Virus record (IMG/VR): IMGVR_UViG_3300025934_000014
Coordinates: 58,116 to 122,115 of that record
Length of the DNA: 64,000 nucleotides
Direction: 5' to 3' (one strand)
From: a virus
Taxonomy: Duplodnaviria > Caudoviricetes
Shown piece by piece: positions 3,219-58,172 of this stretch. Made by a program: the position numbers and the translations under genes. The notes beneath the pieces are model-generated. The model was not told the DNA's origin. It saw only the letters and a list, made by a program, of their open reading frames with translations, and did no database searches. Within the stretch, counting starts at the first letter, position 1, and each line of letters opens with the position of its first letter.

Positions 3219-3743
3219 ATGTCTACACTCATGAATCCTCGCGCGATGCGCGAACGTCACGTTGTCGAAATCGACATGGGTCAGGGCCAGCACGTGCTCG
3301 CGCGGCGCGAGGACATGACGGTCATGGTCTTTGAAGGCCGCATCCCGATGCCGCTGCTGGTCGCGGTCCAGAAGATGATCGAGATGCCGGGCGCGTCCCC
3401 CACCGAACGCCTCGCCGCGCTGGGCGAAGCGCACTCCCGTGAACTGGTCGATGTCGTGCGCGAGCATGCGATCAAGGTCGTCCTCCAGCCGGTGCTCGTG
3501 GCCGAAGACGACGGCAATCCCGATCACCTTCCGGTCGGTTTACTCACGCTCCCCCAACTCATTCAAATCTGGAGCGAGACTGCCGTTGTGCCGTTGATGA
3601 CGGCGCAGACGGCGGCGGACTTTCGTGCAGGCGCACGCACCCCTGATGCTCCTGTGCTTCCAGATGGGGAAGCAGTACAACCAGCCGCCAAGCCGGTGGT
3701 GGTTCCAATCCGACCCGACATCGACGAATTCGTCCGCCTCTGA
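3219..3743 (+). CDS. tail assembly chaperone (gpG-like)
   Basis: Acidic ~170-aa ORF directly upstream of the tape measure gene, with an overlapping +1-frame ORF. Confidence 0.7.
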   Translation: MSTLMNPRAMRERHVVEIDMGQGQHVLARREDMTVMVFEGRIPMPLLVAVQKMIEMPGASPTERLAALGEAHSRELVDVVREHAIKVVLQPVLVAEDDGNPDHLPVGLLTLPQLIQIWSETAVVPLMTAQTAADFRAGARTPDAPVLPDGEAVQPAAKPVVVPIRPDIDEFVRL

Positions 3744-3876
3744 ACGGGCGATGGCGTTCGACTTCGACGCCGCGTGCATGTCACTGGGACTCGACGCGGA
3801 GTTGAAGGCGCGTGAAGCCTACGACGAACAACATACCGGGACGAAGGTGACTCGACGCCGCTTCGGCGTGGGGTAA
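3621..3876 (+). CDS. frameshifted extension of tail assembly chaperone (gpGT-like)
   Basis: +1 frame continues from TTT CGT at 3621-3626 to a stop at 3876, just before the TMP start; no RBS of its own. Confidence 0.65.
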
Positions 3877-3888
3877 GGGTGTGCGCTG

Positions 3889-6800
3889 ATGGCCGACAAC
3901 GACGTACTCATCAAAATCGCAGCGGATGTCGCCAGTGCCGTCAAGGCACTGGAGGGCATGGTCGAGAAACTCGACGCGACCAACAAAGCGATTGCGGCGA
4001 TTGGTGATACGTCCAGCAAGGCGAAGAAGGACTCCGAGTCGCTGAGCACGTTCTTCGGCGTGCAGATGGCGAAGTCGTTCGACGCGGCGAAGGAAGCGGC
4101 GCTGGGGTTGGTCGAGAAGATTCCCGACATGGTGGGCCACGTCGCGGAACTGGGCGACTCACTCCTCGCCATGAGCCAGCGCACCGGCGTCTCCGTCGAA
4201 GGGCTGTCCGGGTTGCGGTTCGTCGCGTCACAGGCTGGCGTGTCGTTTGAGTTGCTGGGCCGCACGGTTCAGCAGATGGGGAAGGAGATCGGAGAAGGCG
4301 GGACCAACACCGTCAACGCGATTGAAGGACTGGGCCTCTCGTTCGAGGCGTTGAAGGCGCAGTCCCCCGAGCAGCAGTTCCTCGCCATCATGGACAAGCT
4401 GCACGGCATCACCGACGCGTCCGAGCGCACGCGCAAGGGCGTCGAGTTGCTGGGGCCGAAGTTCAAGATGATGTCGAACCTCGCGACGGAGGACATCGGC
4501 AAGTTGATGGAGGAGGCCAAGAAACTCGGCCTCGTCATGTCGGAGGATACGGCACGCGCCGCCGACCGGTACGGCGACTCCCTCGACCGCATCAACAAGA
4601 TGATGGAGGCGACCCGAAACGAGATCGGGGCGTCCCTTCTCGGCCCCCTGTCAGACTTCCTCGACCTCGCGCCACAAGTCAGCGGCGCATTGCTGGTAAT
4701 CGGAGACGCTGTCCTCGATGTTGGGAAGGCCGCAGGCAAGGTCTTCATCAATATGCTCCCGCAAATTGTGGACAAGCTGGGAGGCTGGAAGAAGGCGTCC
4801 GAACTCGTCAAGACGGAAACCATCGCGCTCGTCACCAAACTCTGGACACAGGTCGCGGCCACGACGGCCTTGAGCGCGGTGCAGACCGAAGCGACGGTCG
4901 CCACGAAAGCGTGGGCGGTCATACAAGGGATCGCGGCGGTCGCGACGGCAGGCGTGACGGCGGCGGTCAGGGCACTGACGGCTGCGATGCTGGCGAACCC
5001 GGTCCTCGCCATCATCGCCGGGCTGATTGCGCTGGGTGCTGCGCTCTGGGCGTTGAAGTCGCACTACAAGGGCGTCGAGGAGGAGGCTGCGAAATCTGCC
5101 AAGACCCAGATGGACGCGGGAAAGAGCGTCGTCCAGATCGAGGCCGAACTGATCCAGAAGGAGAAGGAGTATCAGGCGGCGCTGACCAGAGGCGAGGTAG
5201 TACTCGCGGCGCGGCTCGACTCGGAGATCAAGGGCGTCAAGAGCAGCGAGGACTACAAGAAGGCCATCGAGGACTACAACACCGCCATCGAGGCTGGTTT
5301 AGCGCCGGGGGCCAATCAGGCGCAGGTCACGGCGTTCCTCGCGGAGAAGCAGGCGGAAGCCACACTCGAACTCCACAAGGGCGCGGATGCTCAGGCCGAG
5401 ATTATCAAGCAGTCCGAGCACTTCAGGGACGCGCAGGACGAAGGCGCGAAAGCGTTAGAAGGCTTCTCGTACGAAACGCAGGAGCAAATCAAGTGGTTGC
5501 TCCTCGACGCCGATGCCACCAATGCCGTGGTCGCTGGCATCACCGGCATGACGGAAGCGCAAGTCCAGTCCGTCCGCACGCTCATGGCTGCGCGTGCCGA
5601 GGCTGCGGCCTTCGACGCGAAGATCGCCGCACAGCGCGAGTCGATGGGGTTGACGGGCACGAGCGCCGCGCTGGCGAATGCCAAGGCCGAGCACGATGCG
5701 GCCATCCAAGCGATCAATGACAACAAGGCGTGGAAAGATGACGCCGCCAGAAACGAAGCCATTCGGCAAGCGGATGTCACGGCCCAAGTCAAACGCGCCG
5801 AGATCCTGACGAACTCTGCGCGTACCGCCGCGCAGTCGCGCATTCAACTCGCCGCCGATGCAGAGATCGCCGCCGTCAATGCGTCCAAGAAGGGACTCGA
5901 CGCGCAACTGGCGATCATCGAGATCCGCAGGAATGCCGAGATCGCTGCTGCCAATGCCTCGGGCGATGCGGTCGGGGCCGCGATCAAGAAGCAGGAGGCC
6001 AACGCCAAGGCGCAACAGCAATCGGAGGCGGCGATCCGCGAGGAGCGGAAGAAGTCCGCCGAGGACGATCTGCGGCAACAGGCCGCGCAGCAGCAGGCGC
6101 TGATTGCCATTCGGTTAGAGGGCAACGAGAAAGAGATGGCCTTGATCAAGGCCAAGGAGGACGAGGACGAGCGCATCGCACGCGACACCATCACCGATGC
6201 CACGTCGCTGGCCGACAAGCTGACGCTAATTCACACGGACGCCGCGAACCAGCGCGTCCTCGTGACCGAGAAGGCCGCGAAGCAGGAGCGAGAGGCGGCA
6301 GCGGAAGCCGTTCGCCAGCAGAACGAGTACGAAATCAAAACGACGAAGGTCGGCATCGATCAGATCGCCGCGCTCCGGGAAATCGAGTTAGAGCGCCGAC
6401 TTGAACAGGCGCGGAAAAGCGGCGAAGACGAACAGCAGGTACGGCTGCGGTTTGAAGCGGAAACTGCCCGACTGATTGCCGAAGGCGACGACGTTACCTA
6501 CACGGGTCGGCAGAAGAAGGCCACGGCGGCGCGAAACGCCTACATCAAGGCCAACAACGATCAGAACGTCTCGGACAAAGAACGGCTCCGGTTACTGCTT
6601 GCGGCTCTTGAGGCGGAAGCGCAAGCGAGGGGCGTCGTTGCCAGAAAGACCAGTGAGTACCACGCCGCAGAAATCCTTGCAGCGGCCGTCGCCCTCGACA
6701 ACATCAAGAAGCAAACCGATGCGACCTATGAACAAGTCGAAGCCGCGCAGGATCTCCTCGACCTCAAATTACAGGAGGCGCAAGTAGACGAGGAGGCCCG

Positions 6801-21282: not shown

Positions 21283-21900
21283 GTGCGGTGGGCCTTGGTC
21301 GGGTTTGGCGGGGCGAGGCATGGTTTGGCTCGCTCTGGTCAGGCTGGGCAAGGCGAGGCGAGGTCGGGTGAGATACGGCTTGGTGCGGCCTGCCTTGGCG
21401 AGGTCGGGCGTGGCGAGGTCCGGTGGGGTTGTGTCTGTCCGGGTGTGGCGAGGCGTGGCGTGGCACGGTCAGGCACGGTGAGGCACGGTCTGGCTGGGCG
21501 AGGTTAGGCGAGGCCGGGCGCGGTTCGGTATGGCGCGGCAGGCTCTACGGCGCGGTGCTTCAGGCACGGCGCGGCAGGTTCTGCCGTGAGGTCTGGTTGG
21601 GCGGGGTTCGGCGTGGCGAGGCTGGCTACGGCCCGGTCAGGCGCGGTGCGGTTTGGTCAGGCATTGGCGCGGCACGGCAAGGTCAGGTTAGGTCGGGTTT
21701 GGCGAGGCATGGCTGGGGCGTGGCAGGGCGTGGCATTGGCGAGGCGTGATGTTGGTCGGGCTTGGTGAGGCAAGGTCCGGTTTGCCAAGGTCAGGCGTCG
21801 GTCGGGTTTGGTAGTGTCAGGCTAGGCAAGGCAGCGGCTTGGCGCGGCGCGGCTCGCTACGGCGTGGATTGGTTTGCCCCGGCGCGGTATGGCGTGGTCT
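21277..21900 (+). repeat. GGY-NN pentamer array 2 (about 115-120 units in two blocks), candidate guide ncRNA
   Basis: 53 in-register pentamers 21277-21541, hairpin-containing break 21542-21589, 61 pentamers with six 1-nt insertions 21590-21900. Confidence 0.9.
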
Positions 21901-21928
21901 TGACATCGCCGTCGATTGGCATTACCAT
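21900..21928 (+). promoter_or_regulatory. sigma70-type phage promoter
   Basis: TTGACA-17-TACCAT. Confidence 0.75.
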
Positions 21929-22467: not shown

Positions 22468-22496
22468 TTGACTTCAGGGAACAGTGCGATTACCAT
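22468..22496 (+). promoter_or_regulatory. sigma70-type phage promoter
   Basis: TTGACT-17-TACCAT with GGGAACAGTG in spacer. Confidence 0.75.
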
Positions 22497-22566: not shown

Positions 22567-24129
22567 ATGGTCAAGAAAGCGGCGGCGGAGACGGCGGCAG
22601 CGGTGCCCTCCACGAGCGATTCCCAGATGGTGCAGTCCTTCAAGGCGGCACGTCGGGTATCGACTCCCATCATTGCAATCGAAACGCCCGATGCGGCGGC
22701 GACGATCACCGCGCTGCGCAAGGCGCTGCCGGATTCCAAAACGCCGATCCTCTCGTGGGATTGCGCGAAGGGACTCTACGGGATGAACGATCCCGGCAAG
22801 ACGGCGTTCGCGGTCCTCGGCGTGGATCCCGCGATGACGGTCAACGCGACCGAAACGCTCCTCGCGTGCGAACGCCTGCCGGAGTTGTCGGTGGTGTTCT
22901 TCCACAACTTCCAGCGCCAGATCAACGAGACGCCGACGATGCAGGCGCTGTGGAACCTGCGCGACCAGTTCAAGATGAACAAGCGCACGGTCGTCCTCCT
23001 CGGCCCGACGTTTCAGCTTCCGGCGGAACTGGCCGGTGACGTGATCACGCTGGACGAGCCGTTGCCGACGCGCGACGAACTCGGCGCGATTCTCGACCAG
23101 CAGCATAAGAACGCCGCGCTGGCGGTACCCGAAGACGAGACGCGCACGGCCGCGCTCGATGCCATCGTCGGACTTCCCGCCTACACGGCCGAACAGGTCA
23201 CGGCGATGGCGCTGACGAAGGACGGCATCAACGTCGGCAAGTGCTGGGAGCGCAAGATCAAGGCGATCCAGAACACCGATGGGCTGCGCGTGTGGTCGGC
23301 GCGTCCGGGCGAAACGACGCTCGATGAACTGCGCGGGATCGATAACGTGGTCGAGTTCTTCCGCCGCCTGATTGCGGCCGACGCGTTCGGCGCGATTGTG
23401 TTCATTGACGAAATGGACAAGGCGCTCGCCGGAGGCATGAGCGAACACACGGGCGACAGCGGCGTGAGCAAGGATCAGGTCGGCACGCTCCTCAGCTACA
23501 TCGAAGACACCGGCTCGCTGGGCGTGATGCTCGCGGGTGTCGCTGGCACGGGCAAGACGCAGTTGGTGAAGGCGGCAGGCGCGGAGAGCGGCAAGCCGGT
23601 CATCATCCTCGACCTCGGCGGCATGAAGGGCGGCGTGGTCGGAGAGAGCGAGCGCCATATTCGCGCCGCGCTGAAGGTCGTCACGGCCACCGCCGAGGGC
23701 CGCGTCCTGTTCGTCGGCACCGCGAACCGCACGACGCTGTTCACGCCGGAGATGAACCGCCGGTTCCCGGACCAGTTCTTTTACGACACGCCGGACGACG
23801 CCGGGCGCAAGGCCATCTGGCCCGTCTACATCGCGAAGAACGGCCTCACGTCGTCGCAGGCCGCGATTCCCGCCGGGTTCGATGCCGGGTGGACCGGAGC
23901 CGAGATCAAGCGTGCGTGCGAACGGGCGGCGCTGTTCGGCACCACGGTGGTGGAGGCGGCACGGTTCATCATCCCGCAGTCCATCAGCGGCAAGAAGGTC
24001 ATCGACGGCTTGCGCCGCGAGGCCGCAGGGCGCTTCCTCTCGGCCAGCCAGCCGGGCCTCTACGAACTGCCGGAGGCTCCGGCCGTTCCCCAAGTGGTCG
24101 TGGCGAACCGCTCCATCGAGGTGAACTAG
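22567..24129 (+). CDS. Ycf46-like AAA+ ATPase with permuted Walker motif order
   Basis: IVFIDEMDK (Walker B), GVAGTGKT (Walker A), VGESER pore loop, GTAN sensor 1, RRFPDQFF Arg finger, GWTGAEI. Confidence 0.85.
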   Translation: MVKKAAAETAAAVPSTSDSQMVQSFKAARRVSTPIIAIETPDAAATITALRKALPDSKTPILSWDCAKGLYGMNDPGKTAFAVLGVDPAMTVNATETLLACERLPELSVVFFHNFQRQINETPTMQALWNLRDQFKMNKRTVVLLGPTFQLPAELAGDVITLDEPLPTRDELGAILDQQHKNAALAVPEDETRTAALDAIVGLPAYTAEQVTAMALTKDGINVGKCWERKIKAIQNTDGLRVWSARPGETTLDELRGIDNVVEFFRRLIAADAFGAIVFIDEMDKALAGGMSEHTGDSGVSKDQVGTLLSYIEDTGSLGVMLAGVAGTGKTQLVKAAGAESGKPVIILDLGGMKGGVVGESERHIRAALKVVTATAEGRVLFVGTANRTTLFTPEMNRRFPDQFFYDTPDDAGRKAIWPVYIAKNGLTSSQAAIPAGFDAGWTGAEIKRACERAALFGTTVVEAARFIIPQSISGKKVIDGLRREAAGRFLSASQPGLYELPEAPAVPQVVVANRSIEVN

Positions 24130-24131
24130 CG

Positions 24132-24602
24132 ATGGCGGCGACGACGATGGTCTGGACGGACTACGCGATTCTGGAGCCGTCCAAGCCGACCTACGACAAG
24201 CACGGGAAGCCGGTGCGCTGGAAGGTGCAACGGAACGAGGAGGGGACGTGGCGCTGCCACTGCCCCGCCTACATCTTCAGCAAGGGCGTGAAGACGTGCA
24301 AACACATCCGCCGGTGCATCGATCAGCAAGTCAAGGAGCAGACCATCGCCACGCCGGTCGCGGTCGCTCCGGCGAAGTCGCCGCACCGCATCGAGGCGGA
24401 GAAGGTGTTCGACGCGATGTGCGCAGCAGCCACCCAGAAGGCGCACGTGAACGTCAAGGCGCAGATCGGTGCCTCGGGCGGGGCGGCGATGGTGGACGTG
24501 CTGATGGCACGACTGGCGACGTGGATGCCGCCAGCAGCGGTGACGGTGACGACTGAGACGACGGTGGTCGGCGTGCGCCGGATCACATTTGACGAAGATT
24601 AA
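24132..24602 (+). CDS. SWIM zinc-finger protein
   Basis: WRCHCPAYIF...TCKHI (CxC-xn-CxH). Confidence 0.7.
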   Translation: MAATTMVWTDYAILEPSKPTYDKHGKPVRWKVQRNEEGTWRCHCPAYIFSKGVKTCKHIRRCIDQQVKEQTIATPVAVAPAKSPHRIEAEKVFDAMCAAATQKAHVNVKAQIGASGGAAMVDVLMARLATWMPPAAVTVTTETTVVGVRRITFDED

Positions 24603-25020
24603 TCGCATCTGGTCGAAGGTCGAGAAGACCGATGCGTGCTGGCTTTGGACTGGTGGCAAGGCCGGTGGCGGTTCACCCGGCGAGTACGGGCAGACGTTCT
24701 ACCAAGGTCGCCCGATGCTGGCGCACGTTGCCATTGATTTGATCGTCAACGGCCCGTTACCGGAGGGGATGGAGCGTCACCACGAATGCCAGAACAAGCT
24801 GTGCGTTCGGCCAGCGGCGGGTCACGTCGTCAGGGTGACGAAGGCTGAACACCGACGATTGACGGCACTGGAGAAGACAACGTGCGTGCATGGGCATCCG
24901 TACACGCCGGGCAATGTGTGGGTGGCTCCGAACGGACGACGCCGCTGTCGCATTTGCCTAAATCTGAAAGAGCGTTCACGCGAGTGGCGCAGGAAACACA
25001 GAAAAACAATCAATCGATAA
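24589..25020 (+). CDS. HNH homing endonuclease-like protein
   Basis: WSKV..CWLWTG..YG..AH..HHEC.NKLCVRP..H; C-terminal CVHGH..CRIC. Confidence 0.75.
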   Translation: MTKINRIWSKVEKTDACWLWTGGKAGGGSPGEYGQTFYQGRPMLAHVAIDLIVNGPLPEGMERHHECQNKLCVRPAAGHVVRVTKAEHRRLTALEKTTCVHGHPYTPGNVWVAPNGRRRCRICLNLKERSREWRRKHRKTINR

Positions 25021-42476: not shown

Positions 42477-42671
42477 ATGGCGACGACGACGGCGACGACG
42501 AATCCGGACCAGCAACTCCACGTGTTCAAGACCTTTCTGGGCCTCCCGCCCGATGCGAATGACCCGCCGGTCTGCGGCGCGGTGCTCACGTCGGCCTACA
42601 ACGGCCGGAACGCGCCGAAGTGCGCCGCCTGTCTGGTGATTCTGAAGGCGGCGCGGGGCGAGCGGTCATGA
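42477..42671 (+). CDS. small zinc-binding protein, likely leaderless
   Basis: ATG 7 nt after -10; H..CG..CAAC. Confidence 0.55.
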   Translation: MATTTATTNPDQQLHVFKTFLGLPPDANDPPVCGAVLTSAYNGRNAPKCAACLVILKAARGERS

Positions 42672-42919
42672 GCGACCACACCATCAAGATCGAGAACGGG
42701 CACGTCCAGTTCGTGTACGACGACGCGCTGGGCGACCTCTTGGCCGAGGGCACCGTGGCCGTCTGCCGTGTCAGCGACGTGGAGCCGGACCCGCGTGGCG
42801 GCTGGTCGGCGGACATGACGAAGGCCGGAGCGCCGGGCGTCCTGCTGGGACCATTCCCGACGCGAGCGGAAGCCCTGCGAGCGGAGCGCGAGTGGCTGAC
42901 GGAGAATCGCGGCCTGTGA
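42668..42919 (+). CDS. hypothetical protein
   Basis: VSDVEPD..GWSADM..LGPF.TRAEAL.AE.EWL. Confidence 0.6.
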   Translation: MSDHTIKIENGHVQFVYDDALGDLLAEGTVAVCRVSDVEPDPRGGWSADMTKAGAPGVLLGPFPTRAEALRAEREWLTENRGL

Positions 42920-43404
42920 GGTCCGTCACGGAAGCAGATCGTTTCTGGGCCAAGGTGAACAAGGACGGCCCGGTGCATCCGGTGCTTGGAACGCGGTGCT
43001 GGTTGTGGACGGGAGCAAAGAACCCAGACGGTTATGGCAACTTCCGCGTAGGCGGCAAGGTCGTGAAGGCCCATCGGATCGCATGGAAAATCCAGACCGG
43101 GGAGTGGCCGGACGCGCACACGCTCCATCGTTGCGATCAGCCTTCGTGCATCCGCTTTGAACACCTGTTCGAGGGAAGCCACGCGGCGAACATGCAAGAC
43201 GCTGCGACGAAGGGGCGCTTCTCTCGGCGCGGCGAGGCCAACCCGAGAGCAATTCTTACGACTGCGGCTGTGGCTGCGATACGTGCAGCGAAGCCAGCGC
43301 ACTACGCACGCAACCGTGCGCTGGTCGAAACGCTGGCTGAAACCTACGGCACGACACCGGCCTACATCCGCCTCCTTTGGAGAAAAAACAATCTTTGGTC
43401 TTGA
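42916..43404 (+). CDS. HNH endonuclease
   Basis: RFWAKV..CWLWTG..GYG..AHRIAW..HRCDQPSC..HL..G...NM.D. Confidence 0.85.
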   Translation: MRSVTEADRFWAKVNKDGPVHPVLGTRCWLWTGAKNPDGYGNFRVGGKVVKAHRIAWKIQTGEWPDAHTLHRCDQPSCIRFEHLFEGSHAANMQDAATKGRFSRRGEANPRAILTTAAVAAIRAAKPAHYARNRALVETLAETYGTTPAYIRLLWRKNNLWS

Positions 43405-43470: not shown

Positions 43471-43914
43471 ATGTCTCACGTCGCAGATGTGGATATTCAA
43501 ATTCGCGACCTCGACGCGTGCGCCATCGCGGCGAAGGCGCTGGGCGGCGAACTGGTGCTGAACCAGAAAACGCACAAGTGGTTCGGCCAGTTCATGAATG
43601 ACTGGAGCGACGAGCAGGCGGCGGCGAACCGGCGCGACCCGGCGACGTTCGGCAAGTGCGACCACGCCATCGTGTTCCCCGGCATCGACTACGAGATCGG
43701 GCTGTGCCGCGAGGCCGACGGCTCCTTCACGCCGGTGTACGACTCGTGGGGATCGGGCCAGCAGATCGCGAACCGGTGCGGTGGCCTGACGCTGCCGAAG
43801 TTCAAGGACGAATACGCCGCCGCCGTCTCGACGCGCGTGCTGGCACGCAAGGGATTCCGGGTCACGCGGACCACGGGCAGCAAGGGCGAGATCGTCCTGA
43901 AAGCGAGCGCATAG
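43471..43914 (+). CDS. DUF1257/Ycf35-like protein
   Basis: MSHVADVDIQIRDLD.., YEIGL....GSF....DSW, YAAAV....A..KGFRV. Confidence 0.7.
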   Translation: MSHVADVDIQIRDLDACAIAAKALGGELVLNQKTHKWFGQFMNDWSDEQAAANRRDPATFGKCDHAIVFPGIDYEIGLCREADGSFTPVYDSWGSGQQIANRCGGLTLPKFKDEYAAAVSTRVLARKGFRVTRTTGSKGEIVLKASA

Positions 43915-44308: not shown

Positions 44309-45280
44309 ATGACGATGGAGACGACGATGACGGACACGACGAACGAGACGGCCCCGACGGCAGGCCAGTTGGTAGCGGCGAAGACGATCTGCTTGGTGCT
44401 CAAGATCGGCCAGTTCGGCAACACGAAACAGGCACCGCTGGCCGGTGCGGTGTTGTCGGCCGATGACCCGACGCAGGAACCCGACAAGAAGTTGCTGCGT
44501 CTGTCGAAGACGCTGATCGTGTCGCCCGAACTGGTGGCGATTCAGAAGCACGACTCGGCGCTGGCCGCGTCGATTCGGCGGCTCGCGTTTTCGTCGCTGT
44601 TCAAGGGCGGCGTCTACATGATTCCGATTGCGATGGTGCCCGACATCGAGGTGCTCTTGCAGGACGCGCAGACGCGTCGGCAGGCGCTGGTGGACGCGGC
44701 CGTCGCGGCCTATCCCCTGCGCGTGCAGGAAACCACGGAGCGCCTCGGCAGCGCGGCGAACACGCGCGATTATCCCAGCACGGAGCGGTTCCGGGCGGCG
44801 TTCTACATCGAGTACAGCTACGTGACCTTCGATACGCCCTCGCGGCTGAAGGCCATCAGCGCGGCGCTGTTTCAGGCCGAGGTCGAGAAGCAGCGTGCGC
44901 GGCTGGAGTCGGTCGCCGGGGAATGCCAGCAGGCGATGCGTGCGGGGCTGGCCCAGTTGGTCGATCACCTCGCGGAGCGCCTGACGCCGGGCGAGGACGG
45001 CAAGCCGAAGCGGCTGGCGCACACGACCATCGGCCACCTGAACGACTTCCTGACGATGTTTGAACTGCGCAACGTCACCGACGACGCCGAACTCGGAGAC
45101 ATCGTGGTCAAAGCGCGAGCGGTCATGCAGGGCGTCGATCACAAGACGCTCAAGAGCGACACGCTGATCGCCCAGAAGGTCGCGCAGGAACTGGCGGACC
45201 TGAAGGCCGCGCTCGACCCGCTGATCACCGAGAAGGGCAACCGCCACATCTCGTTCGAGGACGAGGACGCGGTGGCCTGA
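44309..45280 (+). CDS. DUF3150-like helical phage protein
   Basis: LSKTLI, GVYMIP, DYPS....RAAF, LRNVTDDAEL. Confidence 0.6.
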   Translation: MTMETTMTDTTNETAPTAGQLVAAKTICLVLKIGQFGNTKQAPLAGAVLSADDPTQEPDKKLLRLSKTLIVSPELVAIQKHDSALAASIRRLAFSSLFKGGVYMIPIAMVPDIEVLLQDAQTRRQALVDAAVAAYPLRVQETTERLGSAANTRDYPSTERFRAAFYIEYSYVTFDTPSRLKAISAALFQAEVEKQRARLESVAGECQQAMRAGLAQLVDHLAERLTPGEDGKPKRLAHTTIGHLNDFLTMFELRNVTDDAELGDIVVKARAVMQGVDHKTLKSDTLIAQKVAQELADLKAALDPLITEKGNRHISFEDEDAVA

Positions 45281-57938: not shown

Positions 57939-58172
57939 ATGGCGACGATGACGACGACGGCGGCTCAGGATCTGGCGCAGGCGCTCGCGGCCTGCACGGG
58001 CGCGGTGCGGGTGACGGTGACGGACGGCCCGGTGATGGCCACGGCGGTGCCGAAGCCGACGCGGGTGAAGATCGGCGTGGTCTGCTTGGAGTGTGGCAAG
58101 CGGTGGAAGGTCGGCCCGAACGCCTCGCCTGAGTGTCCGAAGTGCGGCGGCACGGACTTCGACGTGCGCTGA
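57939..58172 (+). CDS. zinc-ribbon protein
   Basis: CLECG...CPKCGGTD. Confidence 0.6.
   Translation: MATMTTTAAQDLAQALAACTGAVRVTVTDGPVMATAVPKPTRVKIGVVCLECGKRWKVGPNASPECPKCGGTDFDVR

Follow-up and report, generated by a model that had tools for sequence, protein, structure and literature searches.

An AAA+ ATPase encoded by an uncultured phage carries, in its active domain, the Walker B strand and the helix that follows it in front of Walker A, and this order, as judged from homologous sequences, is inherited by at least 150 sequence clusters. The protein, P0001 (520 residues), is translated from an open reading frame without internal stops at 22567-24129 (+) of the 64,000-nt stretch of DNA that we analysed, hereafter the window, which spans positions 58,116 to 122,115 of the IMG/VR virus record IMGVR_UViG_3300025934_000014 and forms the final 64 kb of that 122,115-bp record, rated complete by CheckV. 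P0001 is very probably a working ATPase of the classical AAA clade, 'Ycf46-like', in which a degenerate D1-like domain is followed by an active, permuted D2-like domain. Its elements lie as follows in the window (residue numbers are those of P0001).

22567..24129, + strand: complete open reading frame of P0001, predicted two-domain AAA ATPase with a permuted active domain (PF00004 match; AlphaFold2 model)
22624..23271, + strand: putative degenerate first AAA-like domain and helical lid, residues ~20-235 (whole-model alignment to the D1-D2 tandem of p97/Cdc48/AFG2; Foldseek)
23320..23376, + strand: helix alpha0, residues 252-270, with LDELRGIDNV at 252-261 (nt 23320-23349); model helix 259-270; aligns to the canonical GGLD..K motif
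23392..23517, + strand: transposed cassette, residues 276-317, with strand beta3/Walker B, the pore-loop-2 region with GDSG, and helix alpha3 (PDB and profile alignments; model strand 276-280, helix 299-315)
residues 276-285, + strand: Walker B, IVFIDEMDK, with D281/E282 at nt 23407-23412
residues 296-314, + strand: GDSGVSKDQ...IED
23518..23700, + strand: Walker A block, residues 318-378, with beta1, P-loop, alpha1, beta2, pore loop 1 (MKGGVVGESE) and alpha2 (PF00004 positions 1-62 on residues 320-382; VAT D2 320-377)
23536..23559, + strand: P-loop GVAGTGKT, residues 324-331
residues 358-362, + strand: VGESE
23701..23727, + strand: strand beta4 with sensor 1 FVGTAN at 382-387 (T385, N387), directly after helix alpha2 (model strand 380-386)
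23758..23763, + strand: R398 and R399 (RRF, 398-400), second region of homology, at the Arg-finger position (align to the RxGR of VAT and of phage relatives)
23797..24066, + strand: helical lid domain, residues 411-500, with the GWTGAEI..C motif (aligns to the VAT/p97 D2 lid)
24106..24126, + strand: C-terminal tail NRSIEVN (R515 invariant in the family)

P0001 scores 51.3 bits with PF00004 (cut-off 21.2), the match falling into two stretches, and it holds the entire classical AAA motif set: Walker A (GxxGxGK[ST]), Walker B (hhhhDE), the sensor 1 Asn and the Arg of the second region of homology. The colinear order of the classical AAA elements is lacking, with Walker B and pore loop 2 preceding Walker A; by its motifs, P0001 is homologous to the classical AAA family yet topologically deviant. 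The order in the active domain is helix alpha0, the Walker B strand with the GDSG helix (276-317), Walker A through VGESE (318-378), sensor 1 and the Arg finger, and alpha0 now runs into the Walker B strand, not the Walker A strand. A first-pass annotation made from the letters of the window had proposed this motif order (LDELRGIDNV, Walker B, Walker A, sensor 1, RRF) for positions 23281-23790, and it stands: the motifs occur in that order in the translation, the interval encloses the permuted core, and the catalytic motifs are all present in an uninterrupted frame. The Walker B/GDSG segment ahead of Walker A, put there at ~45 residues, is here narrowed to 42 (276-317). Between Walker A and sensor 1, neither the sequence nor the model of P0001 holds an hhhhDE motif or an additional strand, and downstream of Walker A there is nothing to which a canonical Walker B aligns. 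The label 'Ycf46-type' is apt as far as domain architecture and gene partners go; the name 'Ycf46-like' as we use it comes from a COG-level label given to relatives by JGI.

Alignments to canonical AAA proteins are non-colinear, as the first-pass annotation had expected, whether made with phmmer, with a family profile or with hhalign. In a phmmer comparison with PDB chains, VAT residues 320-380, 379-416 and 422-503 fall on residues 317-377, 274-313 and 378-456 of P0001, respectively. With a family profile of 63 members, VAT D2 residues 320-377, 377-429 and 424-503 fall on profile positions 302-359, 257-310 and 365-441, and the piece scores (30.8, 13.1 and 17.1 bits) are above those of the single sequence. 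When profiles of the permuted family and of normal-order phage relatives were compared with hhalign, the main alignment (E 3e-49) skipped 276-316 on the permuted side and 367-410 on the canonical side, while a second alignment (97.9% probability, E 3.7e-13) placed permuted 267-316 on canonical 357-405, a match that takes in the DE pair, the K that follows it, the GDSG motif and the helix.

Restoring the canonical order in silico, by exchanging residues 276-317 with 318-378, raised the BLASTP bit score by 34-91% against every normal-order relative tried:

Aeromonas phage HJ05: native 60 bits, un-swapped 102
Rhodobacter phage RcTiptonus: native 58 bits, un-swapped 111
Planctomycetota locus L010: native 147 bits, un-swapped 207
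Planctomycetota locus L009: native 165 bits, un-swapped 223
Planctomycetota locus L011: native 186 bits, un-swapped 249

As a control, 30 random swaps with equal block sizes were scored against L010 and gave a mean of 121 bits. Four of the 30 reached the un-swapped level (202-206 bits), all of them starting at 270-273, and one further swap came out slightly above the native 147 (151 bits).

Homologues of the same order, looked for as a check on the first-pass annotation, are plentiful. All 120 near-length homologues listed (42-100% identity, from many separate assemblies) are colinear with P0001, the full-length members covering 92-100% of it. From 1.84 billion cluster representatives (50%-identity clusters), searched exhaustively, the best 150 were examined, each with E ≤4e-88; nearly all are single full-length colinear matches, and the acidic pair precedes the P-loop in 150 of 150. 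The 1017 clusters found at E 1e-30 or better do not give the extent of the permuted clade, because normal-order Planctomycetota relatives would pass the same threshold; the verified number is the 150 representatives. The same order is present in gp103 of the cultured phage Tunturi_3, in metagenome-assembled genomes (MAGs) from Terriglobia, Bryobacterales and Gemmatimonadota, and in a prophage-like region of a 4.7-Mb genome.

Across these proteins the catalytic positions hardly vary. Of 151 sequences, all have E in the Walker B Glu column, and the Asp column shows D in 147 with E in the other 4; the Walker A Lys (K330) and the sensor 1 Asn (N387) are each found in 151/151, R399 in 150/151 and R398 in 129/151, and G444 in the lid is invariant in the family alignment. 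Pore loop 1 (residues 349-359, nt 23611-23643) reads MKG[GS][VL]VG in the permuted family, with its Lys conserved in 121/151 and no aromatic, whereas the normal-order phage relatives have RVFGS[FY][IV]G, with an aromatic present. Two permuted members, P0168 (896 residues) and P0196 (810 residues), contain inteins, one in the sensor-1 motif (..IAT/C...HN/CN..) and the other in the P-loop (GPPG/C...HN/CAKS); several normal-order relatives are ~850 residues long and have intein Pfam matches.

Maximum-likelihood trees built on un-swapped alignments split the permuted set off from both normal-order groups (support 1.0 and 0.998), a result that fits one origin of the rearrangement, with the permuted proteins forming one clan. 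The trees leave the nearest normal-order sister unsettled, since they are unrooted and each normal-order comparison set was collected around one query. In the profile alignment, residues 267-275 look like the terminal part of canonical helix alpha2, a part that P0001 also has in its normal place at 366-376. These residues may have been left by a tandem duplication whose outer copies were later lost, or the resemblance may just as well come from what is required of a helix end ahead of the Walker B strand; no intermediates of a duplication-then-deletion route were found.

Monomer structure prediction, also suggested in the first-pass annotation, gave a confident model (AlphaFold2 on a 63-sequence alignment; mean predicted local distance difference test (pLDDT) 92.2, predicted template modelling score (pTM) 0.85). 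The whole model (18-490) superposes on the D1-D2 tandem of p97, Cdc48 and AFG2 (Z 17-18.5 over ~400 residues), in agreement with Foldseek, and for this reason residues ~20-235 can be read as a degenerate first AAA-like domain, in which inspection of the sequence finds neither GK[ST] nor hhhhDE, the Walker A Lys and the Walker B acidic pair both being absent. D2 superposes on p97 D2 with Z 15.7 and a root-mean-square deviation of 2.6 Å over 203 residues. Some 50 residues of D2 (~50) are left out because structural aligners require sequence order, and the position of the moved cassette is not visible by them. The model of D2 consists of helix 259-270, strand 276-280, two short helices, helix 299-315, strand 318-324, helix 330-341, strand 345-348, helix 358-376, strand 380-386, helix 394-399 and strand 402-406, and has exactly five strands. 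A model of a normal-order Planctomycetota relative (pLDDT 78.6) contains the same elements with the same lengths; the sole difference is that the block made of a strand, two short helices and a long helix stands after alpha2 in the canonical protein and before beta1 in the permuted one. The junctions of the swap coincide with boundaries of secondary-structure elements, and the modelled linkers are short (alpha0-beta3 ~5 residues, alpha3-beta1 2, alpha2-beta4 3).

We propose that in an ancestor of these proteins the beta3-alpha3 unit, carrying Walker B, the pore-loop-2 region and the GDSG helix, would have been transposed from behind to in front of the beta1-alpha1-beta2-alpha2 block, which carries Walker A and pore loop 1, giving what would now be the chain order alpha0-beta3-alpha3-beta1-alpha1-beta2-alpha2-beta4. 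The sheet of AAA+ proteins has the strand order 5-1-4-3-2, and the strand-helix units would keep their usual spatial places in it, as they can because each unit enters and leaves the parallel sheet at one and the same edge. Only three short connections (alpha0-beta3, alpha3-beta1 and alpha2-beta4) would be rerouted, and right-handed crossovers would be preserved because each reroute shifts one or two strand positions in the same direction across the sheet. If the units keep their places, the ATP site would be built from the same residues as in other AAA proteins, namely K330/T331, D281/E282, N387 and, from the neighbouring subunit, R399. A ring of P0001 subunits would use ATP to remodel or unfold a protein substrate together with DUF1257, DUF2997, DUF3150-like and RASHVEP-type partners (see below); by analogy with Cdc48 and VAT, an ATP-driven hexameric ring that remodels or unfolds a protein is the most likely function.

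A bolder claim would be that P0001 stands for the first natural AAA+ motor (of the additional strand catalytic E (ASCE) class of P-loop proteins) with a working non-circular permutation of the core, altered coupling, and a duplication relic at 267-275; taken as a whole, we think this rather unlikely. Helix alpha3 normally passes the state of the nucleotide on to sensor 1 and the adjacent subunit. If the bolder claim were true, an alpha3 feeding straight into the Walker A strand would alter the coupling of ATP state, pore loop 2 and subunit interface.

Several points weigh against the reading of P0001 as a working, rearranged ATPase. The packing of the cassette in cis and the distance from D281/E282 to the P-loop are deduced from secondary structure, model confidence and topology, and the ATPase activity of P0001 and the other permuted family members, like ring formation and the substrate of P0001, is what we infer. 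Since pore loop 1 of the permuted family has no aromatic, its grip and handling of substrate may differ from those of the normal-order relatives. The long branches between the tree groups are partly a sampling effect, because the canonical sets were each built around a single query. Finally, the partner genes in this phage lie 20 kb downstream of the ATPase gene, not adjacent to it.

The cassette could also act in trans, residues 276-317 completing the sheet of a neighbour in a domain swap that runs round the ring, so that the domain would be active only in the oligomer. Segment rearrangements can in general favour domain-swapped oligomers, but the short linkers argue against a swap here, as does the confidence of the monomer model at 271-280 and 301-320 (block pLDDT 91-97), and we regard this arrangement as very unlikely. 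A permuted domain decayed to a pseudo-enzyme, serving the module as a structural partner only, would be in keeping with the first domain of P0001, which is already degenerate, and with the aromatic lost from pore loop 1. However, the catalytic residues stay near-invariant down to 38% identity, which would be unexpected without catalysis, and inteins sit within the P-loop and sensor 1, intein sites being usually under strong functional constraint; such decay is, in our judgement, highly improbable.

We give hardly any credence to the idea that the 'Walker B' found upstream is a chance resemblance within a linker and that the domain binds ATP without hydrolysing it, as a switch or scaffold. As a single sequence, 274-313 matches VAT weakly (2.5 bits), but the profile match of the segment to canonical 357-405 is strong, its Glu is invariant and its Asp nearly so, the domain minus the cassette strand would have four strands, not five, and the canonical relatives are gapped in the main alignment exactly at the missing cassette. 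There is next to no chance that an assembly or sequencing artefact misjoined contig pieces of a normal-order gene, even though the record is an assembly of an uncultured virus: the order recurs in >260 proteins from independent assemblies (ENA, JGI, Logan and NCBI) as well as in a cultured phage whose genome is complete and in MAGs from two phyla, the reading frame is unbroken and each junction lies at a secondary-structure boundary, and misassembly can be ruled out without reads because the order is shared by all listed homologues and the cultured phage.

P0001, read as a working ATPase with a transposed cassette, also shares its gene partners with normal-order cousins. The promoter-like site of its own gene and the module genes of the window are the following.

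22468..22496, + strand: promoter-like site TTGACT-17-TACCAT 5' of the ATPase gene (consensus match only)
42668..42919, + strand: RASHVEP-type small protein (...RVSDVEPD...), 49-50% identity to small proteins after DUF2997 in L004 and L005 (E ~1e-19)
42892-43404, + strand: HNH_3 endonuclease gene (PF13392, 37 bits), between the RASHVEP-type and DUF1257-type genes and overlapping the end of the former
43471..43914, + strand: DUF1257 (Ycf35-type) protein, 40% identity (E 2e-30) to an L004 protein that passes PF06868
43917..44084, + strand: tentative DUF2997-like protein of 55 residues (position, size and the loose pattern V.I..GE..V.ADG....C only)
44309..45280, + strand: DUF3150-like helical protein of 323 residues with the tail NRHISFEDE..., 32-36% identity to ATPase-adjacent proteins in L001, L004, L005 and L007 (E 1e-24 to 4e-55)

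DUF1257 and DUF2997 genes stand next to the ATPase gene in permuted (L001, L004, L005) and in canonical loci (L002, L009-L011, L013), and module partners surround the permuted ATPases of Tunturi_3, L004, L005 and L007. P0001 likewise has the degenerate N-domain followed by one active AAA domain, and this N-domain aligns to those of the normal-order phage relatives. That the permuted ATPase keeps the partners of its normal-order cousins argues, by analogy, that it does the same job. In the window three of the partners were found by homology (DUF1257, DUF3150-like and RASHVEP-type). The 55-residue protein gave no Pfam match and no BLASTP alignment to a DUF2997 protein, and neither the DUF1257-type nor the RASHVEP-type protein of the window has a Pfam match of its own. 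The HNH_3 gene, to go by its domain match and its place, looks like a homing-endonuclease insertion into the module.

The ATPase gene of this phage stands alone with its own promoter-like site. A promoter consensus scan returned two sites against 0.4 expected, and these, at 21900-21928 (TTGACA) and 22468-22496 (TTGACT), both on the + strand, have the same unusual second hexamer, TACCAT, and a 17-nt spacer. Ahead of the start of the gene, the sequence reads AGAGGAGACGACG-ATG. A Shine-Dalgarno GAGGAG lies ~8 nt 5' of the ATG and makes a strong ribosome-binding site. Directly 3' of the ATPase gene, 24132-24602 (+) encodes a protein of 156 residues with a Cys/His pattern (W.CHCP...C.H) that has the look of a SWIM-type zinc finger. 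We considered it as a module partner and set it aside: it has no Pfam, PHROG or PADLOC match and is not related to what lies after the ATPase gene in L004 and other genomes. A second HNH gene (phrog_826) lies just past the ATPase region, at 24589-25020.

The ATPase and its DUF3150-like partner share a C-terminal tail, in which a basic residue is followed by R, any residue, I/F/V, any residue, L/F/V and acidic residues: it reads NRSIEVN in the ATPase (24106-24126) and NRHISFEDE in the partner (45230-45280), with PRRMISLEED and PRRAISLVAD among the L001, L004, L005 and L007 proteins. Tunturi_3 gp96 (XOB77277.1, L001 9693-10652) is labelled 'HNH endonuclease' in its record, an annotation that is probably wrong, because gp96 is homologous to the DUF3150-like partner (34% identity to window 44309-45280, E 2e-40). 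In L005, a Gemmatimonadota contig with a permuted ATPase, genes for Ku and an ATP-dependent DNA ligase lie just upstream (3608-5348).

P0001 scores 32.2 bits against the CDC48 family model TIGR01243, whose cut-off is 802.65, and 30.9 bits against the NCBIfam model of the IetA/IteA anti-phage ATPase, whose cut-off is 510. Identity with IetA was rejected, as the PADLOC match (31.5 bits) covers residues 358-455 only and reflects generic AAA similarity. All NCBIfam and PADLOC matches of P0001 are generic AAA matches far under their cut-offs, and they assign it to no defence system or curated family.

P-loop NTPases are regarded as invariably placing Walker A before Walker B, an order built into annotation profiles; it is in keeping with this that PF00004 matches P0001 in pieces. 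A literature search found no paper on a Walker-B-first or permuted core in AAA+ or other ASCE ATPases, in a coverage that was incomplete and from which absence is no proof. The 'circular permutation' in a paper on jumbo phages refers to DNA methylases, not to AAA+ proteins (PMC7824862). A large natural clade with all catalytic residues kept offers a test of how far AAA+ connectivity can change without loss of the fold, and a natural experiment on how non-circular permutations arise. It also bears on whether motor coupling depends on how pore loops, P-loop and subunit interface are covalently linked. Both topologies can be compared directly at the bench, because they occur with the same five-gene module and a permuted member is present in the cultured phage Tunturi_3. 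Moreover, the finding adds to the case that the module, as yet uncharacterised, forms one machine of phages and integrated elements.

Among named systems, the permuted protein with a known host is Tunturi_3 gp103 (XOB77284.1, PP885686.1), which is 33% identical to P0001 over 93% of its length. Its phage is a cultured phage of Tunturiibacter, a host of a different phylum (Acidobacteriota), and, unlike in the window phage, genes for DUF1257 and DUF2997 directly follow that of the ATPase; the record labels gp103 'ATPase' and makes no mention of the order.

There are two groups of normal-order relatives. The ATPases of Planctomycetota elements (L009 Gemmataceae, L010, L011, L013 Thermoguttaceae; for example P0407, 'MAG: AAA family ATPase [Planctomycetes bacterium]') form a very large group of proteins of ~500 residues that have a degenerate N-domain like that of P0001 and share with it the GWTGAEI..C lid motif, a C-terminal LSAS..Y segment and a basic tail. 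Their genes are arranged as DUF1257-DUF2997-AAA-DUF3150-like-RASHVEP, the same partner genes as in the permuted module. At 32-34% identity to un-swapped P0001 they are closer than RcTiptonus and HJ05, but they have the canonical order of Walker A, VGxxE, Walker B, GDSG and sensor 1 and form a separate clan in the tree. RcTiptonus gp60 (QXN72530.1) and HJ05 gp65 (WEV89366.1), whose relatives are named 'SpoVK/Ycf46/Vps4 family' by JGI, have the same two-domain architecture as P0001 and the neighbourhood AAA-(X)-DUF1257-DUF2997, in which the RcTiptonus protein at the DUF1257 position has no Pfam match. They differ from P0001 in their canonical order, in an identity of 24-28% to its un-swapped form and in the aromatic of pore loop 1.

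The type II unfoldases Cdc48, p97 and VAT resemble P0001 in the folds of both domains and their arrangement, in VGESE, in the second region of homology and in the lid motif. In contrast to them, P0001 has no N-terminal substrate or cofactor domain, its D1 is catalytically dead, and its core is permuted. In family, fold and probable mechanism P0001 belongs with the classical AAA ATPases; the connectivity of its catalytic core is, to our knowledge, without precedent. A natural, inherited change of motif order that keeps both fold and activity is familiar from the circularly permuted GTPases YjeQ/RsgA and YlqF/RbgA, in which the whole domain is circularly permuted (G4-G5-G1-G2-G3) with Walker A still before Walker B. 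We know of no permuted P-loop enzyme, among those that include these GTPases, that departs from the latter rule. In P0001, by comparison, two adjacent internal blocks have traded places while the rest of the protein stays colinear, and Walker B precedes Walker A.

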